Source: a virus. From it: DNA of 64,000 nt. Positions within the stretch are counted from its first letter, which is position 1, and every line of letters starts with the position of its first letter. This document shows, one piece after another, positions 5,710 to 43,404 of this stretch. Location of the stretch: IMG/VR virus record IMGVR_UViG_3300047160_000733, one strand, 5' to 3'. Made by a program: the position numbers and the translations under genes. The notes beneath the pieces were generated by a model, which was given only the letters and a program-made list of their open reading frames with translations, was not told the DNA's origin and did no database searches.

Positions 5710-5886
5710 CTAGTTTAGCGGTTTAATTTCAACGTCCAGAACTTCACCACGCAACAATTCAAACGTATAGAAAAGATCCTGATACACTATAGAGACAACG
5801 GTTAAAACCCCTTCATTGTGCTGTGTGTCTGTTATGCTGTGGATCTTCCCGTATCTTCTGCAATCTTTGTATAGTCTGTTATTCAT
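5710..5886 (-). CDS. hypothetical protein
   Basis: ORF-track 5710..5916 trimmed to the ATG at 5886 (MNNRLYKD...) with AAGGAAAG RBS. The longer start overlaps the -10 at 5915-5920. Confidence 0.5.
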   Translation of the reverse strand: MNNRLYKDCRRYGKIHSITDTQHNEGVLTVVSIVYQDLFYTFELLRGEVLDVEIKPLN

Positions 5887-5914
5887 GGCTGCTTTCCTTG
5901 TATGTAGTCCGATC

Positions 5915-5943
5915 ATTATGGCTGTATATCGTGGCTAGGTCAA
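5915..5943 (-). promoter_or_regulatory. sigma70-type promoter
   Basis: Minus strand TTGACC-N17-CATAAT. Confidence 0.6.
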
Positions 5944-5964
5944 AGATTTTTATGATTTATTTTG

Positions 5965-5993
5965 TTGCTTTCTGTTTTTGTGTGGTCTATAAT
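5965..5993 (+). promoter_or_regulatory. sigma70-type promoter facing the ORF-free locus
   Basis: Plus strand TTGCTT-N17-TATAAT. Divergent from 5915-5943. No translatable ORF with an RBS follows it. Confidence 0.55.
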
Positions 5994-5999
5994 TCTGTT

Positions 6000-6540
6000 G
6001 AACTTAAGGAACAACGCGCCACCCCCACGGCGAAAAGGCGGGGCTAGGGCTTCGGCACAAGGTGGATCGCCGGTAGCTCGGCCTGAAAAAGTTTTGTAAA
6101 GATTGAAAATAATGCTTGATCGGTGGCGTGGTTCTGCTATTATTATCACATAGCGGGAACACAGAAACCGGAGTTCAAAACACCGGAGGTGCCCGCTATT
6201 CCGGTAATGAGAATGATTATCATTCAACAATCTAAATGCGAATGATTCGTATTTCGCCTCGAAAAAAATCCTCCGATGAAAAATAATTTTGATTTTGTGA
6301 AACCATAAAAAATTTTTTGCGCCCTACCCTGCCGTAACGATTACAAAACCGAATTTGAAAAATCGATCGAGATCCTTGGAAAAATTTTACCGCCCTACCC
6401 TTCTCGACAAATTACGAAAGCTACATCGAGAAACAGATCGAGATCCTAAATTTTGGTAGGTGTAGATTTTATGAGCGCCCTGCCCTGCCCGCTATATTGT
6501 GATTGCTAGATTGAAAAGTAGATCGAGATCCTAAAATGTT
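6000..6540 (+). ncRNA. candidate untranslated transcript (GC-rich structured 5' part plus three-repeat array); 3' end unknown
   Basis: Starts about 7 nt after the -10 of the 5965-5993 promoter. The only plus-strand ATG ORFs are 13 aa or shorter or lack an RBS. Several GC stems are present, e.g. AGCGGG...CCGG-AGTTCAAAACA-CCGG...CCCGCT at 6151-6197. Strand and extent are inferred. Confidence 0.3.
6319..6532. repeat. three bipartite direct repeats (58 nt each; starts 6319, 6390, 6475)
   Basis: Each unit is GCGCCCTACCCTGCC-like (15 nt) + 31 nt semi-conserved + GATCGAGATCCT (12 nt, identical in all three). The 31-nt spacing is exact in all copies. Inter-unit linkers are 13 and 27 nt. Confidence 0.9.
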
Positions 6541-6795: not shown

Positions 6796-7623
6796 CTACG
6801 GTTGGAAATCGCATCGGGCTTTCAAATATCCCAGTGGGTAGTCCTTACCGTTAAGCATTTTATACATCTTAATTTCATTCTCTGTTGGTGACAGGTAGTC
6901 CTCAAAGGAATCAAATAGGTCATCATACTTACCAAAGGATTGTTTGTACCCTTTATCAATGTACCCCTTAGATGGAACGTAGTCATAATGGGACTGTTTA
7001 AATGTTGTTACTCCTTCCTCAGATTCAAAACTTAGGCAAGTACCATCCCAACGTATATCACACCCTTGACGGTGATGGAGGTAATAGTGGGAGGAGTATC
7101 CTTCACCGCGCCGAGCTATGTCATACACGAACCTATTTGAATCGTGCATCCCAAGACGTGTCAGTAATTCCTTGTGCATCTGAGACAATCTTTTGTGTTT
7201 TATTTCACCGAATGTGAAGTATCCCTCGATAACCTCCTCTGCTTCAGACAGGCACTCCTCAAGTATTTCAGACACCTCATCAGACATCTCCCCGCTAGAC
7301 AAGGCTAATGATATGTTCTTGTGGATAAGGCACATCTTGTCATGCAGGGTGGAAGCTGTATCCTCCAGCCTTTCAGCATACTCTTCATACTCTAGACAAT
7401 CCGACACAGGAACCTCAAACCCTGATAGATAGTCTCCCTCCCTAGTTATATCTTCTTCTTCACTACGGGACATCTCTTTTACTGCTGACTCTATTGCAGA
7501 TTGGGTTTTCCTCAGCTCAGATACAGGCATCACTGGGCATTTATAGTAGTTGTTTGCTGTATGCTCTATGCCGCCTAGAATGTGGAAGTTTTGAACAGGT
7601 GTTGAGTTATTCTTAATGCTCAT
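6796..7623 (-). CDS. hypothetical highly acidic protein
   Basis: 275-aa ORF rich in D/E (EEEDITREGD, SEAEEVIEG, DDLFDSFEDY). Confidence 0.75.
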   Translation of the reverse strand: MSIKNNSTPVQNFHILGGIEHTANNYYKCPVMPVSELRKTQSAIESAVKEMSRSEEEDITREGDYLSGFEVPVSDCLEYEEYAERLEDTASTLHDKMCLIHKNISLALSSGEMSDEVSEILEECLSEAEEVIEGYFTFGEIKHKRLSQMHKELLTRLGMHDSNRFVYDIARRGEGYSSHYYLHHRQGCDIRWDGTCLSFESEEGVTTFKQSHYDYVPSKGYIDKGYKQSFGKYDDLFDSFEDYLSPTENEIKMYKMLNGKDYPLGYLKARCDFQP

Positions 7624-8318: not shown

Positions 8319-8497
8319 TATTTCACCTTCTTGTTGGGGTTATCGTGCAACGTATAACGGAAGTAGGCCATGTTGCGTGATGCCTTAACACCGTAGTAGG
8401 TGGGATGACCATATCCAAATACCCATCCGGTAAAGATCAGTGTGTATTCCCACAGTCGCCATACAGAACGACGATAGAATTGTTTAACGTCATGCAT
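8318..8497 (-). CDS. small hypothetical membrane protein (59 aa, below ORF-track cutoff)
   Basis: Hand translation: MHDVKQFYRRSVWRLWEYTLIFTGWVFGYGHPTYYGVKASRNMAYFRYTLHDNPNKKVK. AGAGGA RBS. Translationally coupled at both ends. Confidence 0.5.
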   Translation of the reverse strand: MHDVKQFYRRSVWRLWEYTLIFTGWVFGYGHPTYYGVKASRNMAYFRYTLHDNPNKKVK

Positions 8498-8696
8498 CGC
8501 TTTTATCCTCTTTCTTGATTTGTGTGATTACAATATCCGTGGCCCCGTTTAATGCTAGTGTTGCTCGGATCTCTTCCATTAAAGACTTCTCTGTACGCCA
8601 GCGCCAGAATTGGTACAACTTGAATGAGTATTCCAGATCCTGTGTTGCTACCACTCCAAGTACCTTATACTCTGCTTTGAACTGTAATGCAATCAT
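8490..8696 (-). CDS. hypothetical protein
   Basis: ORF-track 8490..8717 trimmed to the ATG at 8696 (MIALQFKAEYK...) behind TAGGAGA. This removes the overlap with 8705..9250. Confidence 0.6.
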   Translation of the reverse strand: MIALQFKAEYKVLGVVATQDLEYSFKLYQFWRWRTEKSLMEEIRATLALNGATDIVITQIKKEDKSDA

Positions 8697-32690: not shown

Positions 32691-35381
32691 ATGAAAGGAT
32701 TATACATATTCGATGCCGAGGCCGACGGCCTGTTGGACGATATGACTCACTTCCACTGTATCCTTTTTAAGGCTTACGGTGAGAAGAAGTTTTATCTATT
32801 CTTGGACGAGAAGCATGAGGAGTACGGCGGGGCATTACAGTACGCCAAGCAGAAAGCAGTTGGGGCGGAAGCTGAGCTGATCGTGCGGGACTTCTCTGAG
32901 GTTAACGCATTCTTGAGCACAGAACCACGGGCCATCGCTTGCCACAACATGTTTGGTTATGACCTACGAGCTTTTAAGAAGTTCTTGGGGACTAAGTACG
33001 ATATGTTTGAAGACAAGAAGTGTATGGGGATGATCAACGGGAAGCAGGTTTCTATGTTTGATACCCTGTCAATGTCTCGTACACTCTACCCTGACCGTCC
33101 TTTACCAAAAGGTTGTCCTGATCAGGTATTCGTACCTGCACTTGGGCGCAAGAAGAAGGTTGGCCCTCATGGTTTGGAAGCATGGGGTATGCGTGTTGCC
33201 AACCTGAAGGTATCCATTGACGACTGGCGCGGGCTCCCACTGTGGAAGTACGTTGACCGTTGTTGGGAAGACGTTGTAATCAACGAATTAGTTTGGCAGA
33301 GACTGGTTCAAGAGGCCTCAGGGAAAGATAACCCCGACGATAAACGCTTCTACTACGGGGATAAACCGGATCGTCTGCGAAACCAGATGATCAATTGGAA
33401 GGATTCTTTACGACGTGGTATGCTGGCAGACTACCTGATGATTGAGCAAGAGATTCAGGGTGTTTGTTTCGATGAAGAATCAGCTATCAAGCTGCGAGAT
33501 TATTGTGACAAAACAATGGCAGAGATCGAGGCAGATGTTGAACCACAGCTTCCAAAGAAGGAGTTGTCTCCATCTGCACGTCCTACGTTCCCTGCGGCAC
33601 CATTTAAAGCGGATGGGACGATCTCTACTCACGGTTGGTCATGGCTGAAGAGGTTAGATTACCCTGTTAACCAAGAGGCGTTGGATTACAAGGATCCACC
33701 TAAAACTTCGTTCAAGGCTAACGGTGAGGTATCTAAGGCGGGGGAGACTTTCTGTAATAAGGCGGGCATTACCGATCCTGAGCTCTATGCGGACTACCTG
33801 CGAGAGATGATAGATCGGGGAACCAGTCTATCACCTTTGCCTCCAGACTTGATGGAACAGGCCATACAGGACCTCAGGGACCGTAAAGAACCTTCGTTCA
33901 TGGTAGAGATGAAGATCTCCAACCAGAAAGACATCAAGGAATACCTTATCCGAGATGCAGGGTGGAAACCTACGGTTTGGCGACTGAAGGACGTAACAAA
34001 AGATCAGTTCAAGAAGCAACGTAACCAGTTCGAGATTGATGACTTGGTTAACCAATACATTGATTGGCTGGCGGAGGTGTGTCCTCATCGAGGGTTGATC
34101 TTGAAAGAACTTGGACTTACAGAGTTCCAGTTCAAAGATCGTGAGAAGATGTTTAAGTTCTTTGTCCGTAAGGCACGTGGACTACCAACCACCGCCAAGT
34201 TTAAGGATGATCGCGGACAGTTGTGTGAGAACCTTGAGAAGGTTCAGGGTGATTTGGCTAAGCAGATCGTTAAGTGGCTGTCATTACGTAACCGACGATC
34301 AGTTCTAGACCCGATGAAGGAAGATAAGGTTGATACAGGACTTCTTAATCATCCACGACTACGGATCGATGGAAAGTTACCAGCTAGGGCCAACGGTATT
34401 ACCAACACAGGACGACGTAAACACTCAATCTGTGCTAACATGCCTAAGCCTGATCCAAAGGTTTTACTTGGCAAGGAGATGCGAGCCCTCTGGGGAGTTC
34501 CAGAAGGTAAGTATCAGGTAGGTATTGATGGTTCCAACCTTGAAGGTATGATTGCAGCGTGGGGCGCTTATGAGTTCGACGGCGGCGAATACCTACGAAT
34601 CATGGAATCAGGTGATGCCCATGCCCGAAACGCGAAGGCTTATTCCATTGCAGCAGGGGTGGAGGTAACACGTAACGGCGGGAAGGGGGTAACGTATGGA
34701 ATTATGTACGGGGCCCAAGCAGCTAAGATCTCTGCAATGCTAGGCATCTCGTTGGAGAAAGCACAGGCCGTAATCGACGCATTCTGGGATAGTAACTTTG
34801 GTTTGAAAGGTCGTCGTGAAGCCCTAGAGAAGTTCTGGGAAGCAACAGGTAAGCGATTCATCTACGGTATTGATGGACGTAAGATCTGGACTCGTTCTAA
34901 GCACTCATTGTTGAATGCTTATCAGCAGAACGGCGGGGCATCTCTGTTTGACTTGGTTGGTATTTTGTTCCATTATGCTATCAAGAATAACGGGATGTAC
35001 GATGATGGTGTCCGTCGAACCATCTACTACCACGACGAGTATCAAATCGAAGTACCAGAGAAGTACAAGAAGAAGTTCTACTTTGACACACTGGAAGAGG
35101 CTGATTCCTTTGTTAAAGAGTTTAAGGCCCAAGGTAAACATCTCGACGGACATAAACACTTTAAGGTCCGTAAGGATGAGAACAAGAAAGAGGTGTTAGA
35201 TGAGAACGGCAATCCTGTACGTGACCCAGTTCTGAATGCTGACGGGAAGATTGAAATAATCTATTGCCCTGTCGGAGAACTTGTGGTTAAATGTATTGAG
35301 AAAGCAGCCAAAATGCAAGGATCCCCAGTCCACATTACGGGTGAATACTTGACAGGTTATAACTGGGCAGACTGCCACTAG
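32691..35381 (+). CDS. family-A DNA polymerase with 3'-5' exonuclease domain (T7 gp5-like)
   Basis: Exo I YIFDAEADGL, Exo II CHNMFGYDL, pol motif A GIDGSNLEGM, motif B RNGGKGVTYGIMYGA, motif C YYHDEYQIEV. Confidence 0.9.
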   Translation: MKGLYIFDAEADGLLDDMTHFHCILFKAYGEKKFYLFLDEKHEEYGGALQYAKQKAVGAEAELIVRDFSEVNAFLSTEPRAIACHNMFGYDLRAFKKFLGTKYDMFEDKKCMGMINGKQVSMFDTLSMSRTLYPDRPLPKGCPDQVFVPALGRKKKVGPHGLEAWGMRVANLKVSIDDWRGLPLWKYVDRCWEDVVINELVWQRLVQEASGKDNPDDKRFYYGDKPDRLRNQMINWKDSLRRGMLADYLMIEQEIQGVCFDEESAIKLRDYCDKTMAEIEADVEPQLPKKELSPSARPTFPAAPFKADGTISTHGWSWLKRLDYPVNQEALDYKDPPKTSFKANGEVSKAGETFCNKAGITDPELYADYLREMIDRGTSLSPLPPDLMEQAIQDLRDRKEPSFMVEMKISNQKDIKEYLIRDAGWKPTVWRLKDVTKDQFKKQRNQFEIDDLVNQYIDWLAEVCPHRGLILKELGLTEFQFKDREKMFKFFVRKARGLPTTAKFKDDRGQLCENLEKVQGDLAKQIVKWLSLRNRRSVLDPMKEDKVDTGLLNHPRLRIDGKLPARANGITNTGRRKHSICANMPKPDPKVLLGKEMRALWGVPEGKYQVGIDGSNLEGMIAAWGAYEFDGGEYLRIMESGDAHARNAKAYSIAAGVEVTRNGGKGVTYGIMYGAQAAKISAMLGISLEKAQAVIDAFWDSNFGLKGRREALEKFWEATGKRFIYGIDGRKIWTRSKHSLLNAYQQNGGASLFDLVGILFHYAIKNNGMYDDGVRRTIYYHDEYQIEVPEKYKKKFYFDTLEEADSFVKEFKAQGKHLDGHKHFKVRKDENKKEVLDENGNPVRDPVLNADGKIEIIYCPVGELVVKCIEKAAKMQGSPVHITGEYLTGYNWADCH

Positions 35382-35416
35382 TGAAATGGGCCTACGGGCC
35401 CTTTATAGGGGGAATA

Positions 35417-35695
35417 ATGATTAGGAAAGGCCTTTCTTACTATTTTTTGAACACGGATGGAGATATATTCCATTATGCAACAAATCCAATTGATAAGGAT
35501 TTTGAAGCAACGGTCAAAGGGCGTAATGGAATAGTTGCTATGAATCTGAACGGACCTGTTACCTACGAAGGTGTTAAGTACGACCCAGTTGTGGGAGTAA
35601 ACGATGTTGGTGTGGTGGTATTACGCCTGATGCGAAAGAAAGGTAGTTTATTCTTTACATCACCACTAACTGTAAACGGAGAAATAATTTCATGA
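35417..35695 (+). CDS. hypothetical protein
   Basis: ORF-track 35381..35695 trimmed to the ATG at 35417 behind GGGGGA. The GTG at 35381 remains possible. Confidence 0.55.
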   Translation: MIRKGLSYYFLNTDGDIFHYATNPIDKDFEATVKGRNGIVAMNLNGPVTYEGVKYDPVVGVNDVGVVVLRLMRKKGSLFFTSPLTVNGEIIS

Positions 35696-35949
35696 GTTAT
35701 TGCGAAATGACAAAAGAAGAGCGTAAGTGGGTAGCCAAGCTTAACAAGATGTTAGCTAATCCCCCGTCAACTCGTTTGGGGTTCTTCACCATCGGGGATA
35801 ATTATATCGCCATATTCAACACAGATATCTTGCCGGATTCTTCACCGTTACTAGACAACGAAGATCTTGTTCACGTTGTCAACTCTACAGGTGCCTTATT
35901 CGGAGAGGTTATTTATTTCCCAGAAGCTGTTCAAGGAGTATGTGGATGA
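35692..35949 (+). CDS. hypothetical protein
   Basis: 85 aa, ATGA-coupled. Confidence 0.6.
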   Translation: MSYCEMTKEERKWVAKLNKMLANPPSTRLGFFTIGDNYIAIFNTDILPDSSPLLDNEDLVHVVNSTGALFGEVIYFPEAVQGVCG

Positions 35950-36170
35950 GTAAGAAAAACAAATTGGTTGAAGTTTTTGTAGACGACGATAGCGAAATGA
36001 TGCGGGTAGACATTGACGGTAAATCTTGGTTCGAGGGTAACTTCTGGGATATTGATCGAGATGGTTGGATCGAGATCATGCAGAAGGCCGGACTTAAGGT
36101 TGATGAGTATTCATATCAATACGGCGATGGTTGTGAAGAAGAAGTTGACGACGAGGAAGAAGAGGAGTAA
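35940..36170 (+). CDS. hypothetical protein with poly-acidic C-terminus
   Basis: Ends CEEEVDDEEEEE. Confidence 0.6.
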   Translation: MWMSKKNKLVEVFVDDDSEMMRVDIDGKSWFEGNFWDIDRDGWIEIMQKAGLKVDEYSYQYGDGCEEEVDDEEEEE

Positions 36171-36194
36171 GATCCTCTGTACCGAAACCAAATA

Positions 36195-36219
36195 GGGCCC
36201 TTCGGGGCCCTTTTCTTTT
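36195..36219 (+). terminator. rho-independent terminator
   Basis: GGGCCC-TTCG-GGGCCC followed by TTTTCTTTT. Confidence 0.8.
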
Positions 36220-36233
36220 ATCTGGAGGAAATA

Positions 36234-36476
36234 ATGGGAAAAGAAAAGTTAGAAATTGGTGATGTTGTTTACCTTAAATCTGGCGGAAAACCTATGACCA
36301 TTGTATCAACACATGAAGGTCTTGGTCTTATAGATACGGGCCATGTTGGGGTTATGTGGATGGGTGAAACGGGTGTTATGCATTCTTCCAAACTGTCAGT
36401 GAATGTAGTCACCAAGACTCAACAATCCGCATACTACCTACGATACGCATCTATTAGCGATATTGGGGGGTTATAA
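36234..36476 (+). CDS. small protein, YodC/DUF2158-like
   Basis: KLEIGDVVYLKSGGKPMTIVS resembles the DUF2158 signature (recollection). GGAGGA RBS. Confidence 0.6.
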   Translation: MGKEKLEIGDVVYLKSGGKPMTIVSTHEGLGLIDTGHVGVMWMGETGVMHSSKLSVNVVTKTQQSAYYLRYASISDIGGL

Positions 36477-36955
36477 TGACACCAGATACTGACGGGATTG
36501 ACCACATCAATATCTACACCAAAGGAAAGACAGAGCTAGGTAGAGGGTTAACCAACCTGTCGCCGTATGCATTCCTTCATGACGGGACGATGTTCCACAG
36601 TATGGAGGCCTTCTGGTATTACCACAAGATGAAGATGTTGGGATTTCCATATGCCCACTTCCACACCATGCGCGGGATGGAGGCCAAGAAAGCAGGAGGT
36701 AAGATCAAGAATAATCTTTCACCTGAACAGTTTGAAGAGTTTAAAATAATCATGATTGAGGGTATGAAATGCAGACTACGACAGAACCCGAAATTACTTA
36801 AACTATTGGTTGACTCTGACCTCCCTTTCAAGCATTATTATGGGTACGGAAGTACAGAGACTGGATGGAAAATAGTTGAGCTTGAGCGCCATAACTGGCA
36901 GTGCGAGCTTTATGAGGAAATAAGGGCTATATGTAAAAAGGCTTGGGGGAAATGA
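36476..36955 (+). CDS. possible NADAR (YbiA-like) superfamily protein
   Basis: HINIYTKGKTELGRGLTNLSPYAFLHDGTMFHSMEAFWYYHKM parallels YbiA INFYS...FSNF...DG..W.TSEHYFQAQKF. A later ...LRQNPKLLKLLVDSDLPFKHYYGYG segment also parallels it. The catalytic-region residues are not all conserved. Confidence 0.4.
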   Translation: MTPDTDGIDHINIYTKGKTELGRGLTNLSPYAFLHDGTMFHSMEAFWYYHKMKMLGFPYAHFHTMRGMEAKKAGGKIKNNLSPEQFEEFKIIMIEGMKCRLRQNPKLLKLLVDSDLPFKHYYGYGSTETGWKIVELERHNWQCELYEEIRAICKKAWGK

Positions 36956-37374
36956 TGGAAAGAAACTTTTTAGAAATTGGTAAGAAATACCTTATCACCA
37001 CAGACAATTGGTTTATTGCGCCAAACGGGCGACAGTACCGCTCAGTATTTGGGACCGTGAAAGGAATCAATGATGCTGACTCTACGTTGGGCCTGAAGAC
37101 CAACCGTAACAGCACAAACTGGTACGTTATTATCGGCGGGATGGTCATTGCGGGATGCCAGATCCACTATTTGGTAGAGACTGAGAGTATTGTCCCTGAA
37201 GGACAGGAAATTGTTGACTTCGAATTCCATGAAGGTGAGGTTAGATTCAACACTGCGCCTTCCCGTATCTATCGTGCGGATGAACCATACAACAGCAGGG
37301 CTGAAGATCCTGTTAAAGCTCTCTCAGTAGTCCATGCCGAGCGTAAACGTATTGCGGGTGTTATTAATGGATAA
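36952..37374 (+). CDS. hypothetical protein
   Basis: Trimmed to the ATG at 36952, overlapping the upstream TGA. Confidence 0.6.
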   Translation: MMERNFLEIGKKYLITTDNWFIAPNGRQYRSVFGTVKGINDADSTLGLKTNRNSTNWYVIIGGMVIAGCQIHYLVETESIVPEGQEIVDFEFHEGEVRFNTAPSRIYRADEPYNSRAEDPVKALSVVHAERKRIAGVING

Positions 37375-37693
37375 AAACAAACAAATGCGGGAATGGCTTG
37401 CTAAGCAGAAATACCTACCTGCGGAGTTCAGGGATTTCCATAACCAAAAGGATCTGTTCGAAGCGATCCACTTTGTTATAGGGAACGCTAACGATAACCC
37501 TAACATCAACCAAAGGACTGGGCATATCTATGTGGTAGATACATTCCTCTGGTATATGGCTAAGCGGGGATATACGCTACAGCGTAGCCGACGGAAGGAC
37601 CTAGACTTCGACAGCATTGAGGCGGATATCAAGGCGGTAGATGAGTTCACAAAAAAGCAGTTTTCTCAAATGTTAAACAACAGCAAGGGGTAA
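37367..37693 (+). CDS. hypothetical protein
   Basis: Trimmed to the ATG at 37367 (MDKNKQMREWLAKQKY...). Confidence 0.6.
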   Translation: MDKNKQMREWLAKQKYLPAEFRDFHNQKDLFEAIHFVIGNANDNPNINQRTGHIYVVDTFLWYMAKRGYTLQRSRRKDLDFDSIEADIKAVDEFTKKQFSQMLNNSKG

Positions 37694-37697
37694 TACT

Positions 37698-37952
37698 ATG
37701 ATCACTATCAATATCAGTTCTGAAGGTACTAAATCTGGAAAAACTTCTGTGGCGATGATTATCGCTAAAGCATTATTCGATGCAAACATCACGGGTGTTG
37801 TTCTATCATGCGATACATATAAATCTTTGGAGGAGAAATTCTTCACCAACCCAAAAGAGCTGGGTAGCCGTGTAACTGAAGCTGAAGTGACGATCTATGA
37901 TGATGCAAATACAGAGTTTATCGAAGAAAAAGGTGGAGCTTTCGGCTTCTAA
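37698..37952 (+). CDS. hypothetical protein
   Basis: 84 aa. Has a GTKSGKTS P-loop-like segment but is too short for a complete NTPase. Confidence 0.55.
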   Translation: MITINISSEGTKSGKTSVAMIIAKALFDANITGVVLSCDTYKSLEEKFFTNPKELGSRVTEAEVTIYDDANTEFIEEKGGAFGF

Positions 37953-37970
37953 TTCATTGAGGGCTTTATT

Positions 37971-38204
37971 ATGACACCAAGACTAAGAACTGTGGAGATT
38001 GCAATTAAGAAGTATGCAGACAATGGTAAAGCCCTGCCTCCTAATCTCCTATACGGGAAATTCCACGGTTGGGGTAATCAGGGATTGGAAGGGGATAATG
38101 GATCAGTTGCTTCAGAGACAATAGGTATTGTTGAGCTTTCCGATGGTCAGATCAGCACATACTACCCTTACCAGTTACGCTTTATAAAATGGAGTAACAA
38201 ATGA
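37971..38204 (+). CDS. hypothetical protein
   Basis: 77-aa ORF. Confidence 0.6.
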   Translation: MTPRLRTVEIAIKKYADNGKALPPNLLYGKFHGWGNQGLEGDNGSVASETIGIVELSDGQISTYYPYQLRFIKWSNK

Positions 38205-38485
38205 AAAAGACATACATTGTAAAATACGATCTCTTCCCATACTACATCGTCATTAAGGGGGAGAAAATGGAGTTTTGCGGAGAGACAAGGGTTATGTCCA
38301 GTAGTCTTGGAAACTTCAGTATGAAGAATATTCTTGGGGAGTTTGGACTAGAAGCATACGAAGACCTAAAAGCTGAGAAGCGTATGTTGTGCAGAAAGTA
38401 TGATGAAGGACTCTTACAACTTAAAAAAGATTTGCTTGCATCTTCGTCGATAAGCGATATAATGAAACACAAAATCCCAGACTAA
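38201..38485 (+). CDS. hypothetical protein
   Basis: 94 aa, ATGA-coupled. Confidence 0.6.
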   Translation: MKKTYIVKYDLFPYYIVIKGEKMEFCGETRVMSSSLGNFSMKNILGEFGLEAYEDLKAEKRMLCRKYDEGLLQLKKDLLASSSISDIMKHKIPD

Positions 38486-38502
38486 CAGAAAAGGAAAAAA
38501 TA

Positions 38503-39456
38503 ATGAGCCAACTTACCAAGATTGAAACTTCAAAAGATGGCGTTATGTACTTTGTGCATCCGCAAACAGGTAAAACCCTCGTCAATATGCGATCACTGAT
38601 CAACTTCTTAGCTCCTGAGAAGTTCCATAACCGAATCAATATCATGCTGTCAAATTCATGGAACATGTTTGACCAGTGCGGGCGTCTGAAGAACTTTGAA
38701 GAGTCTGAGAAATTGCATTTCCATTGTCCTGTTGCTTGTCGGAACATCCGTGCCACTAAGTGGGGAGACACTGAGGGAGCGATCCGATTCGTTAAGACCA
38801 TCCATATGTACTTGCACAAGACTGTTGCCGATGCCGTCTGGACGATTAAGAGCTTTAAACATGATGTAAATACAGTCCACGCCGCCACTGTAAACTGGCC
38901 CTCTGTACGTGTTAATGAAACAGCTCCGATCCTACCAACCAAGTTGACCGATGTGTCCGTTGTTTCCAACACCTTGAAGATGCGGATCGATTGTTTGGAG
39001 TATGAATTGAAAACTCACAAGGATACAATTGGTGCTCTTCGTGTAAAGGCTGTTGGTGATGATCTAGAGGTAAAGAAATCTGCAAAAGATCTGGCTAAGG
39101 CTCAGTGTCGAATTGAAGAGCTTGAACTTCAGGTGGCTAACCTTACGAATACTGCTTTGACTTCAACTCATGGTAACGTATTCTTCAACGATGAGGCCTT
39201 CCTGCTGGCCTGTGATAACGTCGGAATTAGTCGGGAGTATGCGAGTAAGCATTTGATGAGCGAGGCCTGTAGCGTTGTCTCACAGAGCATCATGACTATG
39301 GCGCAGATCCATATTGCGAACTCAGGCTTCAGGACTACAGGGGCTGAGTGTCTTAACTCTTGGGGTATTCGTAGATTGAAGGAGCTAGACCTGAAGAAGG
39401 TTGCGGTCAATGTCTATACAGACCATCAGAAAAAGAAGCTGAATAAAAACTTCTAA
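38503..39456 (+). CDS. hypothetical protein with central coiled coil
   Basis: 317 aa behind AAAGGAAAA. Heptad-like region CLEYELKTHKDTIGALRVK...CRIEELELQVANL. Confidence 0.7.
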   Translation: MSQLTKIETSKDGVMYFVHPQTGKTLVNMRSLINFLAPEKFHNRINIMLSNSWNMFDQCGRLKNFEESEKLHFHCPVACRNIRATKWGDTEGAIRFVKTIHMYLHKTVADAVWTIKSFKHDVNTVHAATVNWPSVRVNETAPILPTKLTDVSVVSNTLKMRIDCLEYELKTHKDTIGALRVKAVGDDLEVKKSAKDLAKAQCRIEELELQVANLTNTALTSTHGNVFFNDEAFLLACDNVGISREYASKHLMSEACSVVSQSIMTMAQIHIANSGFRTTGAECLNSWGIRRLKELDLKKVAVNVYTDHQKKKLNKNF

Positions 39457-39465
39457 GACTCCAAC

Positions 39466-39493
39466 AGGCCACCTTCGGGTGGCCTTTCTTTTG
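39466..39493 (+). terminator. rho-independent terminator
   Basis: AGGCCACC-TTCG-GGTGGCCT followed by TTCTTTTGG. Confidence 0.8.
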
Positions 39494-39504
39494 GTTTCAA
39501 GTTA

Positions 39505-39513
39505 TGGTAAAAT
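39505..39513 (+). promoter_or_regulatory. possible extended -10 promoter of the cassette unit
   Basis: TGgTAAAAT. The same 9-mer occurs on the minus strand at 59931-59939 upstream of a baseplate gene. Confidence 0.4.
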
Positions 39514-39543
39514 AGCTTATTGATTGATATTTTGGAGGAACCT

Positions 39544-39681
39544 ATGTGGAATATGCTGTTGAGTCAAACTAAAGCCACTTTCGGGGCTAGGTATGGTGCT
39601 GCAAAGATAAAGATAATGAAGGCAGTTAAACCTTCAGTCCGGTTCGGCGCGGCTAAGATTAAAATAATGAGGAAGGCATAA
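39544..39681 (+). CDS. micro-ORF s0 (45 aa, very basic), cassette 1
   Basis: GGAGGA RBS. MWNMLLSQTKATFGARYGAAKIKIMKAVKPSVRFGAAKIKIMRKA with an internal repeat GAAKIKIM x2. Stop overlaps the next ATG (TAATG). Confidence 0.55.
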   Translation: MWNMLLSQTKATFGARYGAAKIKIMKAVKPSVRFGAAKIKIMRKA

Positions 39682-40772
39682 TGAGTACAGTGTACATGAC
39701 GGATTTTGATGATATGTTCAATGCTGGTACAGCAACATCATGGACTTATGGAAAAGGCGACCTTCTTGCAAGATTTATTGCTGACTCTTCTAGGGTTCAA
39801 GATGGAACGAATAGGAACGGGGTATTAAATTTAGCAATAGGTAGCAATGTGGGTGTACTGAAGTGGGTGACAAAAGAACTCATGATGAAATTTCCACAAA
39901 CTACAACACCATATGCCAACGGTACAGGATCAATAATCTTCTCGGCAGTAGAGAGAAAATCTAAAAAAGAATTCGTAGTTGGTGAGTGCTATACCCTAGG
40001 GGCTAAACTTATTAAAAGTTGGTCAACTACAACGCCAATTGTCATGGTATATGGGTCAAATGATCAGGTTGCAAATAAATTCTCCATTGCAACATCTAGT
40101 TCAGCAACAGATATGTATGTGGAAACTACAGTCAAGATAACTGGAGTGACAGACACTGAATTATCTGGCATTATTGAAGTGTTTATCAACGGTGTTAAAA
40201 CATACAGTCAGGCGTGGAAAGATATTGGGTCAATAATTATAGGTCCGTATTATGCTCAGGTGTGGAATGGGTCATCTTTGGTATATCCTACAATGCCTCC
40301 TGCTGGCGGGCAGATTTCATACTCAAATATCTATGTAGATTCTAGTGCGGGGGATCCAACCAGACACGGTTCTGTGATTATATCATCACAAAATTTTGAC
40401 AGTGTTAAGGTAGGAGGGGAAACAGAGGAAAACAAAGACAGGTTCTACTCACAACATTTTAATATTGAGTCTGGTTTGTTTGGTATGACAACTGACGGGT
40501 ATGTTCCCAGTGGGAACGTTGAGTTTGAGGCTACGATCCAAGACACATCGGATATCATATCTGCAACTTGCTCCTTACTTTGTGACAGCTCTGACCCAGC
40601 TATCCCAGTTAGTGTTGTTTCAAAGATTGATAAAAAGGGGGGAGGTTCGGCTTCGGAAACATCTAAACTAGCGTTGCTGGTCGATAGAGGCCTTGGAGTG
40701 AACATACCAATAGACCCTGTAGATATTTTGAATGGGGGTATTACTTTTAAAAATACCACCGAGAGGTTATGA
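39681..40772 (+). CDS. cassette large protein P1 (363 aa), jelly-roll/ConA-like lectin fold suspected
   Basis: Shares the block DMYVETTV...IEVFINGV...IGSIIIG with P2 (NVFVEVVV...VSVYYNGT...IGSISIG) and P3 (DVYVEVCF...IQMYYNSE...). Confidence 0.75.
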   Translation: MSTVYMTDFDDMFNAGTATSWTYGKGDLLARFIADSSRVQDGTNRNGVLNLAIGSNVGVLKWVTKELMMKFPQTTTPYANGTGSIIFSAVERKSKKEFVVGECYTLGAKLIKSWSTTTPIVMVYGSNDQVANKFSIATSSSATDMYVETTVKITGVTDTELSGIIEVFINGVKTYSQAWKDIGSIIIGPYYAQVWNGSSLVYPTMPPAGGQISYSNIYVDSSAGDPTRHGSVIISSQNFDSVKVGGETEENKDRFYSQHFNIESGLFGMTTDGYVPSGNVEFEATIQDTSDIISATCSLLCDSSDPAIPVSVVSKIDKKGGGSASETSKLALLVDRGLGVNIPIDPVDILNGGITFKNTTERL

Positions 40773-40773
40773 T

Positions 40774-40920
40774 ATGTGGATAACACTACTAGCATCTGGG
40801 CAAGCCTCAGGCCAATCTGCAATAATTCAATCTGTCAGTGAGTACATGTATGTTGTCAGCCCAAAATCGGCAGTTGTTTGGACATTGACAGAATATCTTT
40901 ACACCATCAAGAAGAAATAG
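40774..40920 (+). CDS. micro-ORF s1 (48 aa), cassette 2
   Basis: ATG lies 1 nt after the P1 stop, behind GAGAGG. MWITLLASGQASGQSAIIQSV... The first 9 codons equal s2 at protein level, with 4 synonymous differences. Confidence 0.6.
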   Translation: MWITLLASGQASGQSAIIQSVSEYMYVVSPKSAVVWTLTEYLYTIKKK

Positions 40921-40928
40921 GGGATACT

Positions 40929-42029
40929 ATGATTGTAGGAATGGGTAGTTGGAATGGTCTTGCTTCAGTTGACTACGCTGCAAGTATGGCCCAAGATCTT
41001 CGCACACGGATCAGGGAGATAACCAAACTTGATAAGGGTCTTTCACCAATTAATACTTTTGACGCTAATACTCAATCTCAGATATCCTTTGTAGCTGGTA
41101 CAGGGGTACGGTGGAAAAATGTGATAGCTAATGGGTTGCGTATGGGTTACGGAACTTGGCAACCGACTAGGAACTACGGTGGAAAGTCTTGCAAGCGGTT
41201 TATTTTTGGGGTGTGTTTGGCGAGGGATGGGTCTAATTACGGGCACCCCGTGGTCATGTACGGTAACTTCCCTCAAGATGCGGGTGGTTACAAAACAGGT
41301 TGGTTAGGTGCAGGTACAAGTGCCACTGGTAACGTTTTTGTTGAGGTTGTTGTAGACTATGGCGTTGATGATTATGTAAGTGTATACTATAATGGCACAC
41401 TGACATTGAAGGTCAAGATGTCGAATATTGGTTCTATCAGTATTGGATCTCTAAACGCAACAACAGATATTAATGGTGGGGCAATTGCACCATTCCTAAG
41501 ACCAGAAATCAACGGACTATTGGAGTTTAAGCAGTGGTATTATGCCGTCAACGGACCAGATGATGTAGTTCTGGATGAGCCACGTGGTGCGTTCTATGTA
41601 GGGAAGATGAATCCTTATGGTCGGGAAGATGGCGATGAAGATGGTGGTACTCCTCCAGACTTCTCTTCTCAATACCCTATAATCAACAGCACCTTACCAT
41701 ATACTGCCGGAGTGTCGTCACCACGTGTAACTCTAGCACCTTCGGGGGGTAAGAAAACCGATTTCAGATTTGACAAGGCATCGGGGACCGATATAAGTGT
41801 AATAGCCGTAGCTACTAGGACTCTCGGTATGTCATCAATATCCGGCCTCAATTCCGGTGTTGAGCAAACCATTACGGTAGGTGGTGAGGTTAAGAAAAGT
41901 ACAAACTTCGTCCCTTTGACATCTGCAACGGTACAAGGTAACTACCAAAATGTGTTGCAGTTTTCTACACCTAAAGATGCGCTGGAGAAAGGTGATGTCA
42001 AGGTGTCTTATTCTTCAGTGAAGGTGTAG
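40929..42029 (+). CDS. cassette large protein P2 (366 aa), paralogue of P1/P3
   Basis: ORF-track 40878..42029 trimmed to the ATG at 40929 behind TAGGGGA. Motif block as for P1. Confidence 0.75.
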   Translation: MIVGMGSWNGLASVDYAASMAQDLRTRIREITKLDKGLSPINTFDANTQSQISFVAGTGVRWKNVIANGLRMGYGTWQPTRNYGGKSCKRFIFGVCLARDGSNYGHPVVMYGNFPQDAGGYKTGWLGAGTSATGNVFVEVVVDYGVDDYVSVYYNGTLTLKVKMSNIGSISIGSLNATTDINGGAIAPFLRPEINGLLEFKQWYYAVNGPDDVVLDEPRGAFYVGKMNPYGREDGDEDGGTPPDFSSQYPIINSTLPYTAGVSSPRVTLAPSGGKKTDFRFDKASGTDISVIAVATRTLGMSSISGLNSGVEQTITVGGEVKKSTNFVPLTSATVQGNYQNVLQFSTPKDALEKGDVKVSYSSVKV

Positions 42030-42032
42030 CCT

Positions 42033-42227
42033 ATGTGGATAACTCTTCTAGCCTCTGGCACTGTCGGGGGTACTTTAGTTGGAGCTACCAGTACAACCCT
42101 GATGTTTAGTCAGGTTTCATCTGGGGCATATATCGGTGCAACATCGGCTACCTGTTTATACTCTATCTTGTCGGCAGTTAAAGTTGGACCGACACAAACA
42201 ACAACGATATTTAGGAGATCTGTATAA
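42033..42227 (+). CDS. micro-ORF s2 (64 aa, G/S/T-rich), cassette 3
   Basis: ATG lies 3 nt after the P2 stop, behind GAAGGTG. MWITLLASGTVGGTLVGATSTT... Stop overlaps the P3 ATG (TAATG). Confidence 0.65.
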   Translation: MWITLLASGTVGGTLVGATSTTLMFSQVSSGAYIGATSATCLYSILSAVKVGPTQTTTIFRRSV

Positions 42228-43342
42228 TGACAAAGATGTTTGTAGACCCTCAGGCGAGAATGACACCAATAACCAGCTATGTTCTTGGTAATAACGCCAC
42301 ATGGTTACAATTATCACAGAACACTGCAAGTGTTGTCGGCGCTATTACTGGAGGAAACCCACTATACCCTAGGGCGGGTAATGCCGTTAGTGTACGGTCT
42401 GAGAATGGCGGGAATTTGGACTACTTACTGTTCATGGCTGCGGCAGGCACAGGGTCGCCAACAACAAGTCAAAACTCAAGGGCTTCTCTGGAGCAAGAGG
42501 TGTATAGTATAAACGAACTAACCAATCCTAACTATCCAATGGAGGTTATTATAGGGGCGAGGGTTAGAAGAAGTGCAGGAAGGTCTGCTCCACTGGCTAG
42601 TGTGTTTTACGGTTCGGCTAACTTATTGTATGGGCCGAATACGTCGGAGACTGATGTGTATGTCGAGGTATGTTTTAATATTGTTACACGTAAAATCCAG
42701 ATGTACTATAATTCAGAGTTGGTTATGGAGAGTACCCTAACAATCTCATCTGGTGCCACTGTGGCTATCCTGTATGTAGGTTCAAACCCAACAAGTAACG
42801 GGAATAACTCAGCAATAGCTAACGGTGAGACAATGAACATCTCCTCTATTGTGGGCATTCAGAATAAAACAGCGGGGGATATGGAAAGACTTGGCCCTGT
42901 TTCGTGTCAAAGGATACCTGCCAGCGCATCACCAATCTCTAATCCCGTTGGTGATTGGGCTGACCAGAGTGCTGTTGTTTCTAGCCTTACAAAGACTTTT
43001 GAGAACACAACCACAGGTCTTACTCCGTTGGTAAGTCCTGCGACATTGAATACTAGCCCAACTGGCGGTACAGTTGATTGTGCTTTACCTGCGCTACCTG
43101 CGGGGTATGAGCTGATCGGTTTTGCGACAACCACCTCAGCACAGCGAGCTAATCCCGCTAGTCCTGTGAATCTGGCAGTAAGTACCCTATTGGACGGGGC
43201 GCTTGTTGGTGATGTTGTTAAAGCATCTATAAAATCACCGACGACACACGTTCAGCCTAACGTAGTTCTCTTAAGTAAACCGATAAAATCTGGCGATGTA
43301 TATCCTACTAAATATACAGTTAAGTTTGTCAGCTCAAAATAG
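42227..43342 (+). CDS. cassette large protein P3 (371 aa), paralogue of P1/P2
   Basis: DVYVEVCFNIVTRKIQMYYNSELV block. S/T/P-rich C-terminal half. Confidence 0.75.
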   Translation: MTKMFVDPQARMTPITSYVLGNNATWLQLSQNTASVVGAITGGNPLYPRAGNAVSVRSENGGNLDYLLFMAAAGTGSPTTSQNSRASLEQEVYSINELTNPNYPMEVIIGARVRRSAGRSAPLASVFYGSANLLYGPNTSETDVYVEVCFNIVTRKIQMYYNSELVMESTLTISSGATVAILYVGSNPTSNGNNSAIANGETMNISSIVGIQNKTAGDMERLGPVSCQRIPASASPISNPVGDWADQSAVVSSLTKTFENTTTGLTPLVSPATLNTSPTGGTVDCALPALPAGYELIGFATTTSAQRANPASPVNLAVSTLLDGALVGDVVKASIKSPTTHVQPNVVLLSKPIKSGDVYPTKYTVKFVSSK

Positions 43343-43365
43343 GGACTGTGTGTTTATTACCTTCA

Positions 43366-43390
43366 AGGGCCCTTCGGGCCCTTTTCTTTT
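43366..43390 (+). terminator. rho-independent terminator
   Basis: AGGGCCC-TTCG-GGCCCT followed by TTTCTTTTG. Confidence 0.8.
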
Positions 43391-43404
43391 GCCTAAAATA
43401 AAAG

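Follow-up and report, generated by a model that had tools for sequence, protein, structure and literature searches.

Repeat-built micro-proteins with a conserved nine-residue leader, each encoded before a predicted lectin-like partner, form exchangeable modules in a phage related to Vequintavirinae

Introduction

The locus described here raises the question of why a peptide of only nine residues should be kept at the start of small proteins that otherwise diverge in sequence. It lies in a stretch of 64,000 nucleotides, the whole of which is called the window, from the IMG/VR virus record IMGVR_UViG_3300047160_000733. Three small open reading frames (ORFs), s0, s1 and s2, each stand there immediately before a large gene (P1, P2 and P3, respectively). 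The window belongs to a large myophage that is related to but distinct from the known Vequintavirinae; its DNA polymerase (32691-35381) shares no more than 67% identity with the enzymes of Serratia phage ChuuTotoro, Acinetobacter phage ABPH49, 4MG and PVP-SE1. A first inspection of the sequence alone, referred to below as the original prediction, had described the shared leader and taken it for a recognition or handover motif on hypervariable micro-proteins. Here we ask whether the small ORFs are genes, at which level the leader is constrained, how the gene pairs are inherited and exchanged, and which function would best fit them.

Results

The leader is conserved as a peptide

As queries, P1, P2 and P3 returned only a handful of proteins, mostly from Sequence Read Archive (SRA) assemblies, on contigs that we label L002-L009. 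These are syntenic phage fragments with 68-96% DNA identity to the cassette region; higher numbers denote further loci introduced below.

As the original prediction stated, s1 and s2 both open with MWITLLASG, and their DNA differs at four of the nine codons, in every case synonymously (ACA/ACT, CTA/CTT, GCA/GCC, GGG/GGC). An ORF start of the type MW..LL occurs only three times on the two strands of the window. Within the window alone, four synonymous and no non-synonymous leader changes are suggestive at most (naive P ~0.005-0.015). Relatives carry a fourth small gene, s3, and when leader codons 3-9 were compared between the s1, s2 and s3 families the proportion of synonymous differences (pS) was 0.79, which is near saturation, with a proportion of non-synonymous differences (pN) of 0.17. 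With the relatives included, the leader positions use two to four synonymous codons each. Based on these proportions and on the codon variety, the constraint on the leader acts on the peptide, and the claim that the peptide is kept rather than the RNA or DNA is borne out. Frameshifts or stop codons in the leader, for which the original prediction had proposed to look in homologous loci, were found in none of the 17 related or distant small genes.

The leader consensus, M-W-x-x-L-L-(A/S)-x-G, is the only part common to all modules and to the distant phages described below. Rare non-synonymous leader changes were seen in L009, where s0 starts with MWNMLFSQT (5864-6001) and s1 with MWITLLTSG (7094-7240), so that leader positions 6 and 7 tolerate conservative change. 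A shared N-terminal recognition or handover motif would be compatible with these data, as a possible role suggested by sequence conservation.

The small ORFs are genes built of 17-residue repeats

The small ORFs s0, s1 and s2 are real genes under purifying selection. Nei-Gojobori ratios of non-synonymous to synonymous substitution rates (dN/dS) between small ORFs and their orthologues were about 0.05-0.24, and those of the large partners were 0.10-0.18 at comparable divergence. For the individual genes the ratio was 0.13 for s0 (L009), 0-0.24 for s1 (L002, L005, L009) and 0.07-0.24 for s2 (L002, L005, L007, L008). At synonymous divergence (dS) reaching >1, the small ORFs were thus indistinguishable from their large partners, and the orthologous small ORFs are intact in all relatives. 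The value of 0.74 for s3 between L007 and L008 rests on six substitutions only, this pair being near-identical and too close to inform. Each small protein is conserved over its whole length among orthologues. The description of the micro-proteins as hypervariable is therefore not upheld, as every family is under full-length purifying selection and the families share a repeat architecture.

Each small protein consists of the leader and two to four tandem repeats of 17-18 residues, the sequence of which is specific to the family. The statement that the peptides diverge completely after the leader holds for their sequences; it fails for their architecture, since the internal period of 17-18 residues is present in all of them. 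The best self-lag was 17-18 aa in 17/17 small proteins, and in 15 of these the observed score was matched by none of 1000 shuffles. When 395 ORFs of 38-110 aa from all six frames of the window were scanned for a period, s2, s0 and s1 ranked first, second and third. The start MWNMLLSQT and the duplicated GAAKIKIM(K/R) segment reported for s0 were both recovered, the latter as YGAAKIKIMK at residues 17-26 and FGAAKIKIMR at residues 34-43; at the DNA level the two copies differ synonymously at five codons and non-synonymously at two. Repeats inside one small protein differ at synonymous sites, which indicates old duplications kept by selection on the peptide. By eye, the repeat in most families reads as a strand, usually a glycine, a second strand and a proline-rich loop.

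Gene callers have overlooked several of the micro-ORFs. The s1 gene is uncalled in L006 (2984-3130) and in L009 (7094-7240, where 8353-8544 is also uncalled), as are all three small genes of L002 (6193-6339, 7455-7649 and 8768-8959). Unannotated second small ORFs are likewise present in L011 (4804-4995) and L012 (4790-4981), missed by the GenBank annotation. Annotation gaps of ~190 nt between the large genes correspond to the micro-ORFs.

The cassette is a probable single transcription unit of three modules

The cassette is predicted to be transcribed as one unit. It repeats a two-gene module three times, each time with a gene for a micro-protein (45-64 aa) and, behind it, one for a protein of ~365 aa. 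Its features in the window are the following.

39466..39495, plus strand: intrinsic terminator, GGCCACC-TTCG-GGTGGCC followed by a T-run; kept upstream of the cassette in L002, L005, L007, L008 and L009
39503..39515, plus strand: promoter-like motif TATGGTAAAATAG, of the extended -10 type TGnTAAAAT; the s0 start codon lies 29 nt downstream
39544..39681, plus strand: s0, 45 aa; leader MWNMLLSQT, then two 17-aa repeats (YGAAKIKIMK / FGAAKIKIMR); strongly basic
39681..40772, plus strand: P1, 363 aa; pairs with s0, whose stop overlaps the P1 start (TAATG); distantly paralogous to P2 and P3
40774..40920, plus strand: s1, 48 aa; leader MWITLLASG, then two 17-aa repeats (SEYMYVV / TEYLYTI)
40929..42029, plus strand: P2, 366 aa; large partner of s1
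42033..42227, plus strand: s2, 64 aa; leader MWITLLASG, then three repeats of ~17-18 aa (LVGATSTT / YIGATSAT / KVGPTQTT)
42227..43342, plus strand: P3, 371 aa; pairs with s2; a jelly roll of the ConA-like type and a C-terminal β-sandwich are predicted
43365..43393, plus strand: intrinsic terminator, AAGGGCCC-TTC-GGGCCCTT followed by a T-run; kept after the last module in L002, L007, L008 and L009

A TAATG overlap joins s0 to P1 and s2 to P3, whereas the gaps between P1 and s1, P2 and s2, and s1 and P2 are 1, 3 and 8 nt, respectively. Each of the six cassette genes is preceded by a Shine-Dalgarno sequence; those reported before s0, s1 and s2 (GGAGGA, GAGAGG and GAAGGTG) were found as claimed. 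Overlaps or gaps of 1-8 nt, together with a Shine-Dalgarno sequence for each gene, constitute a layout of translational coupling.

The terminators are strong, with GC-rich hairpins and TTCG or TTC loops, and both their sequence and their position are kept in relatives (L002, L007-L012). Judged from this sequence, the upstream terminator is predicted to end the preceding gene and to insulate the cassette. If translated, the terminators yield spurious ORFs such as '...KGPSGPFSF'.

The C-termini of the small proteins are basic (RKA, KKK, RRSV, KESK, KKG; in the window, for example, at 39670-39681, 40909-40920 and 42213-42227). As the codons of these tails overlap the Shine-Dalgarno sequence of the partner (AGGAAGG, AGGAGA), translational coupling may have produced the basic tails incidentally.

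Upstream, the cassette adjoins a gene for a 317-aa protein (38503-39456) that ends at the upstream terminator and for which no family match was found. This gene is kept in L002 and L009; it is absent in L007 and L008, where a DUF7206 gene and a gene for a small membrane protein replace it.

Whole modules are exchanged with one junction in the leader

Four module types were recognised among the close relatives. The contigs carry differing subsets of them in a constant order, as follows.

Window and L006: s0-P1, s1-P2, s2-P3
L009: s0-P1, s1-P2, s3-P4
L002 and L003: s1-P2, s2-P3, s3-P4 (L004 ends inside s2)
L005: s1-P2, s2-P3 (the contig ends there)
L007 and L008: s2-P3, s3-P4

The s3 protein opens with MWISLLAGG and continues with three copies of STTRVGV. 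Between the window and L009, homology extends up to 42043, in the fourth codon of s2, and is found again from 43346, immediately past P3. Between the window and L002 or L005, it runs through the promoter region to 39550, within the ATGTGGA of s0, and picks up again at 40773, one base ahead of the s1 ATG. The s3 leader of L009 is chimeric (MWITLLAGG). From the position of these breakpoints at leader codons it follows that modules were deleted or replaced with one junction in the leader: whole modules are gained, lost and swapped, and the leader is the module boundary. This coincidence of the leader with the exchange junctions was absent from the original prediction. The junctions either reflect microhomology, with 8-11 nt of shared DNA at the leader, or only such precise events survive.

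Small gene and partner are inherited together in distant phages

An exhaustive profile search revealed further partner families of 350-400 aa, and every readable locus has a small gene directly upstream of the partner. The leaders and repeats of these distant small proteins are given below.

L010, first module: leader MWTMLLSGG, three copies of FSGAWVTxIYAP
L010, second module: leader MWTMLLSGG, three copies of SSTRIGFITQPP
L013: leader MWAMLLSNH, two copies of LRVYGMYPTFL
L018: leader MWIMLLGAG, three copies of SSTRVGVIYRP
L019: leader MIIPLLGLI, three copies of NxRQxSGQYI
L020 (85 aa): leader MLEIMLGGG, four copies of GVINQITGLVVxxPTRK
L014: leader MIENLIGSG, three copies of TxGAAxF

The published cultured phages ChuuTotoro and ABPH49, distant Vequintavirinae, carry two modules each, annotated as hypothetical or not at all; their small proteins on record include URC22126.1 and AXN57743.1. 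In ChuuTotoro these are MWALLLANG with three copies of AVERVVRVYxP and a GTG-started VWVMLLSGG with three copies of ASTTRLGxIT; both module types recur in ABPH49. Leaders of the MW type in these distant lineages include MWTMLLSGG (L010, ABPH49), MWALLLANG (ChuuTotoro), MWAMLLSNH (L013) and MWIMLLGAG (L018), and those of L019, L020 and L014 are weaker variants.

A small protein of the STTR(V/I/L)G type always precedes a partner of the P4 type, even where the partners share only ~25% identity. Pairing kept at this distance marks the pair as an evolutionary unit, and the view of the micro-ORFs as genes each tied to a divergent large partner is strengthened accordingly by their co-inheritance.

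L013 encodes P0009, whose 90% cluster includes WP_284161608.1, a 'hypothetical protein [Burkholderia pseudomallei]' from DNA of ~44% GC. Its source looks like a phage genome mislabelled as, or contaminating, a Burkholderia assembly. Cluster comparison suggests one phage lineage for both L013 and the window; in that case, this lineage would have a fourth module in its structural region, and the three-module cassette of the window would be an extra, displaced copy array.

Genomic context and a promoter-like motif

In ChuuTotoro, ABPH49, L010, L013 and L017/L018 the modules occupy one constant position, directly behind the gene for a collagen-like 'tail fibre' protein (950-1100 aa) and ahead of a short collagen-like gene, after which come the head-tail adaptor, terminator, sheath and tube genes. 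The tail-fibre and baseplate genes of the window are on the minus strand from ~49 kb on.

The motif T(A/G)TGGTAAAATA(G/A) stands upstream of the cassette in the window and in every close relative, and TGGTAAAATA occurs only once in the window. In L010-L013, TGGTAAAATA(G/A) also precedes collagen-like and neck genes (L010 4281, L011 6079, L012 6071, L013 7240 and others). We regard it as a candidate promoter, late or structural, for phages of this group. Its position before collagen-like and neck genes in relatives suggests that the window cassette may be co-regulated with structural genes.

The large partners are predicted to have a ConA-like jelly-roll fold

P1, P2 and P3 are distant paralogues (pairwise BLASTP E 2e-5 to 0.03) with a shared core, 'VYVEV..D....VYYNG.L', and partner sizes across all families are ~350-400 aa. 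An AlphaFold2 model of P3, built from a 17-sequence alignment, reached a predicted local distance difference test (pLDDT) score of 68 and a predicted template modelling (pTM) score of 0.72; in it, a jelly roll spans about residues 50-215, and residues 280-371 form a β-sandwich. A model of P2 from 10 sequences (pLDDT 38) was unusable, and the P3 model alone was used. Foldseek comparison with the PDB matched ~200 residues, at a probability of ~1.0, to a sialidase lectin domain, NTNHA/BoNT Hc, PL7 lyases and pentraxin. Against BFVD, the matches were full-length phage proteins with template modelling (TM) scores of 0.4-0.55, one of them annotated 'virion structural protein'; many belong to multi-paralogue sets of Chi-like siphophages, and some are named ConA-like or LamG-like. 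On the strength of this model, the partners are predicted to belong to the concanavalin A (ConA)-like jelly-roll fold.

At the sequence level, curated models such as Pfam Laminin_G_3 gave no significant match for the large partners. Laminin_G_3 was reached only by a distant relative, P0014, at E 0.016 and under the curated cut-off, the window proteins having no Pfam match, and a PDB profile search returned only a weak match to GH16 (E 0.43). Both weak matches are consistent with the modelled fold. No catalytic signature is conserved in the partners, which makes it more likely that proteins of the modelled fold would bind rather than catalyse.

Among the Chi-like phages, Hafnia phage Enc34 (L016, NC_019524) has four tandem ConA-like paralogues, ORF33-36, at 33450-39757, with no small ORFs between them. 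The array resembles the window cassette in its fold, its C-terminal β-sandwich and its tandem paralogues beside fibre genes; it differs in lacking the interspersed small ORFs, and the sequence similarity is marginal. The next gene, Enc34 ORF37 (= YSD1_35 / phrog_7226), has at its N-terminus some four repeats of 17 residues (RVSTSVLEVMLEGPP, SISVSTVLLEVLLVSPP, among others), similar to the STTRVGV-type repeats found in the micro-proteins. By sequence resemblance, ORF37 may be a fused or ancestral form of the micro-protein repeat element. Its identification as the known tail fibre of Chi and YSD1 was rejected, as it matches YSD1_35, a hypothetical protein, and not YSD1_29.

Database searches

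The 4-kb region had no match by megablast and tblastn in 50,697 phage records. IMG/VR yielded no relatives, and a degenerate leader pattern gave one chance match there inside another ORF. A profile of the P4 family found nothing in JGI metagenomes, and a DNA pattern of two s3-type repeats gave only chance matches in high-GC DNA among metagenome and GTDB genome contigs. Neither the small nor the large proteins of the window had a significant match in Pfam, PHROGs, NCBIfam, PADLOC or Rfam, and four protein-family libraries contain no model for the small proteins or their partners. When 13 small proteins were scanned against the tail-fibre chaperone and small tail protein families of Pfam, PHROG and NCBIfam, none was significant; the best non-significant matches were of s1 to phrog_4644 'tail protein' (E 0.069) and of an s2 orthologue to phrog_15069, of unknown function (E 0.0073).

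Discussion

What would such a leader be for? We tentatively favour, at somewhat less than even confidence, the reading that the gene pairs encode two-component, virion-associated, lectin-like modules of a fibre or adhesin, in which the leader is common and the repeats form a partner-specific stalk. The small protein and its partner would together form a small fibre or adhesin on the virion. The 17-residue repeats would make a short β-rich stalk that holds its own lectin-like head or helps to assemble it, and the invariant leader would act as a common plug or handle that brings each module to one and the same docking site or assembly factor. The phage could thereby carry several interchangeable heads. 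Of these elements, virion association and the stalk and anchor roles are inferred, as is late expression.

Several observations weigh against this reading. Literature searches gave no proteomics for module-carrying phages. The Chi-like arrays consist of structurally similar proteins that lack a small ORF, so the small partner is not obligatory for the fold. The TM-scores of the PDB matches are low (~0.25 over the full length), with only the jelly roll covered. The window cassette lies outside the fibre cluster, past the DNA polymerase region and among small genes of unassigned function. When each small protein was compared in sequence with its own partner, nothing significant emerged. Two more specific models were set aside as well. 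A clamp of three repeats on a homotrimer (1:3) was dropped as the main model after proteins with two and four repeats had been found, and a leader that copies the partner N-terminus was rejected, the likeness of MSLLFAGG in P4 to MWISLLAGG being only qualitative and the small-versus-large alignments not significant.

The proposed modules can be compared with two groups of known proteins. In modular fibres and tailspikes (P22-like, T7-like and multi-spike phages), a conserved N-terminal anchor is combined with an exchangeable distal receptor-binding part. The modules described here likewise have a conserved N-terminal element and divergent distal domains, with several heads per genome and recombination at the conserved part; however, the conserved nine residues are on a separate micro-protein of 45-85 aa and not on the binding protein itself. 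Phage fibres are well known to combine a conserved N-terminal element with exchangeable distal parts and to recombine at the former. The novelty lies in the form of that element, a 9-residue tag carried by a separate micro-protein made of 17-residue repeats. The triple β-spiral shafts of the adenovirus fibre and of reovirus σ1 consist of repeats of ~15-20 residues behind an N-terminal virion-anchoring tail. The micro-proteins appear similar, by their sequence, in having a short anchor-like peptide, a variable number of ~17-residue repeats, hydrophobic strands and Gly/Pro turns; they differ in having only two to four repeats and a 'knob' that would be a separate polypeptide. We know of no sequence relationship between triple β-spiral shafts and the micro-proteins.

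The main rival is a dedicated, non-structural assembly chaperone of the lectin-like partner that would be absent from the finished virion, and the data barely separate it from the favoured reading. Its repeats would template folding or oligomerisation of the partner, and its leader would either attract a common factor, from host or phage, or simply be needed for the fold of the chaperone itself. Phage fibre genes are commonly accompanied by small cognate chaperones, and the small size, the tight translational coupling, the strict co-inheritance with the partner and the specificity of the repeats for the partner family would all be expected of one. The genes of known fibre chaperones, however, usually follow the fibre gene, and their products fall into recognisable families, none of which matches here; the variation from two to four repeats looks more like that of a length-variable structural element. 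We consider a chaperone role less likely than the favoured reading, though it deserves serious attention.

The leader could also be conserved for a need of the DNA or RNA, as a recombination linker or as a translation (re-)initiation context, with micro-ORFs that mainly couple the translation of the large genes. Module junctions at the first leader codons, the chimeric leader of L009 and the translational coupling of all cassette genes agree with this; nevertheless, the synonymous sites of the leader are near saturation while its amino acids are kept, only ATGTGGAT is common as DNA, and purifying selection covers the whole small ORF, including repeats that differ from each other synonymously. 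No Rfam family matches the region. As the whole explanation this is improbable and contradicted by the synonymous saturation of the leader, although the leader may genuinely serve recombination as a side function.

Slightly less probable still is a packaging or processing signal that would direct the small protein into the prohead or another assembly intermediate and then be cleaved. The model for such a signal is the capsid-targeting sequence of T4 internal proteins, a conserved N-terminal peptide of ~10 residues that is the sole common feature of proteins from a variable locus (PMC3012670). The small proteins of the window also share only a short conserved N-terminal peptide, their locus is polymorphic, and s0 is very basic, as T4 internal proteins are. 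The T4 prohead protease cleaves at the end of the tag at a motif that contains Glu (L/I-x-E type). MW-type leaders contain no acidic residue and no other obvious motif of the T4 type, Glu occurring only in the two weakest variants, MIENLIGSG and MLEIMLGGG, in a comparison made with the T4 motif from which the protease of this phage may differ. In addition, s0 alone is basic, the bodies are 17-aa repeats and not globular inhibitors, the modules of relatives stand among fibre and neck genes and not among head-core genes, and the phage belongs with Vequintavirinae and not with the T4 group. A cargo signal would not explain why the small gene is locked to a lectin-like partner. The T4 tag is a looser analogy, weakened by the missing cleavage-type motif and the obligatory partner.

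It is very improbable that the micro-proteins are precursors of ribosomally synthesised and post-translationally modified peptides (RiPPs) modified by the adjacent large protein, or small membrane peptides with a superinfection-exclusion or holin-like role: a conserved leader and variable body beside a large gene, and the Gly/Ser/Thr-rich s2 with its weak glycine-zipper match (E 0.19), recall such systems, but Pfam and NCBIfam detected no modifying enzyme or RiPP recognition element (RRE) domain, the partner is a predicted lectin-like jelly roll, the 'cores' are conserved β-type repeats behind a leader of only nine residues, the charge on s0 and on the s3 type keeps them from spanning a membrane, so that such a role does not fit the family, and PADLOC gave no matches.

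Returning to the two-component fibre or adhesin that we favour, a broader proposal, which we hold more doubtfully, is that the micro-proteins may constitute a previously unrecognised class, a 9-residue plug with two to four 17-residue β-hairpin repeats, that serve as adaptor stalks docking interchangeable lectin-like heads. If this were true, the glycan-binding repertoire of a phage could be changed or multiplied by cassette exchange at the plug codons. Micro-proteins are routinely overlooked, and this family can be recognised by a MWxxLL(A/S)xG start followed by a 17-residue period. If the modules are virion adhesins, they would offer a compact route to diversify host or glycan binding, with one plug and many heads, and would be of use in engineering Vequintavirinae-group phages, which are under study as candidates for therapy.

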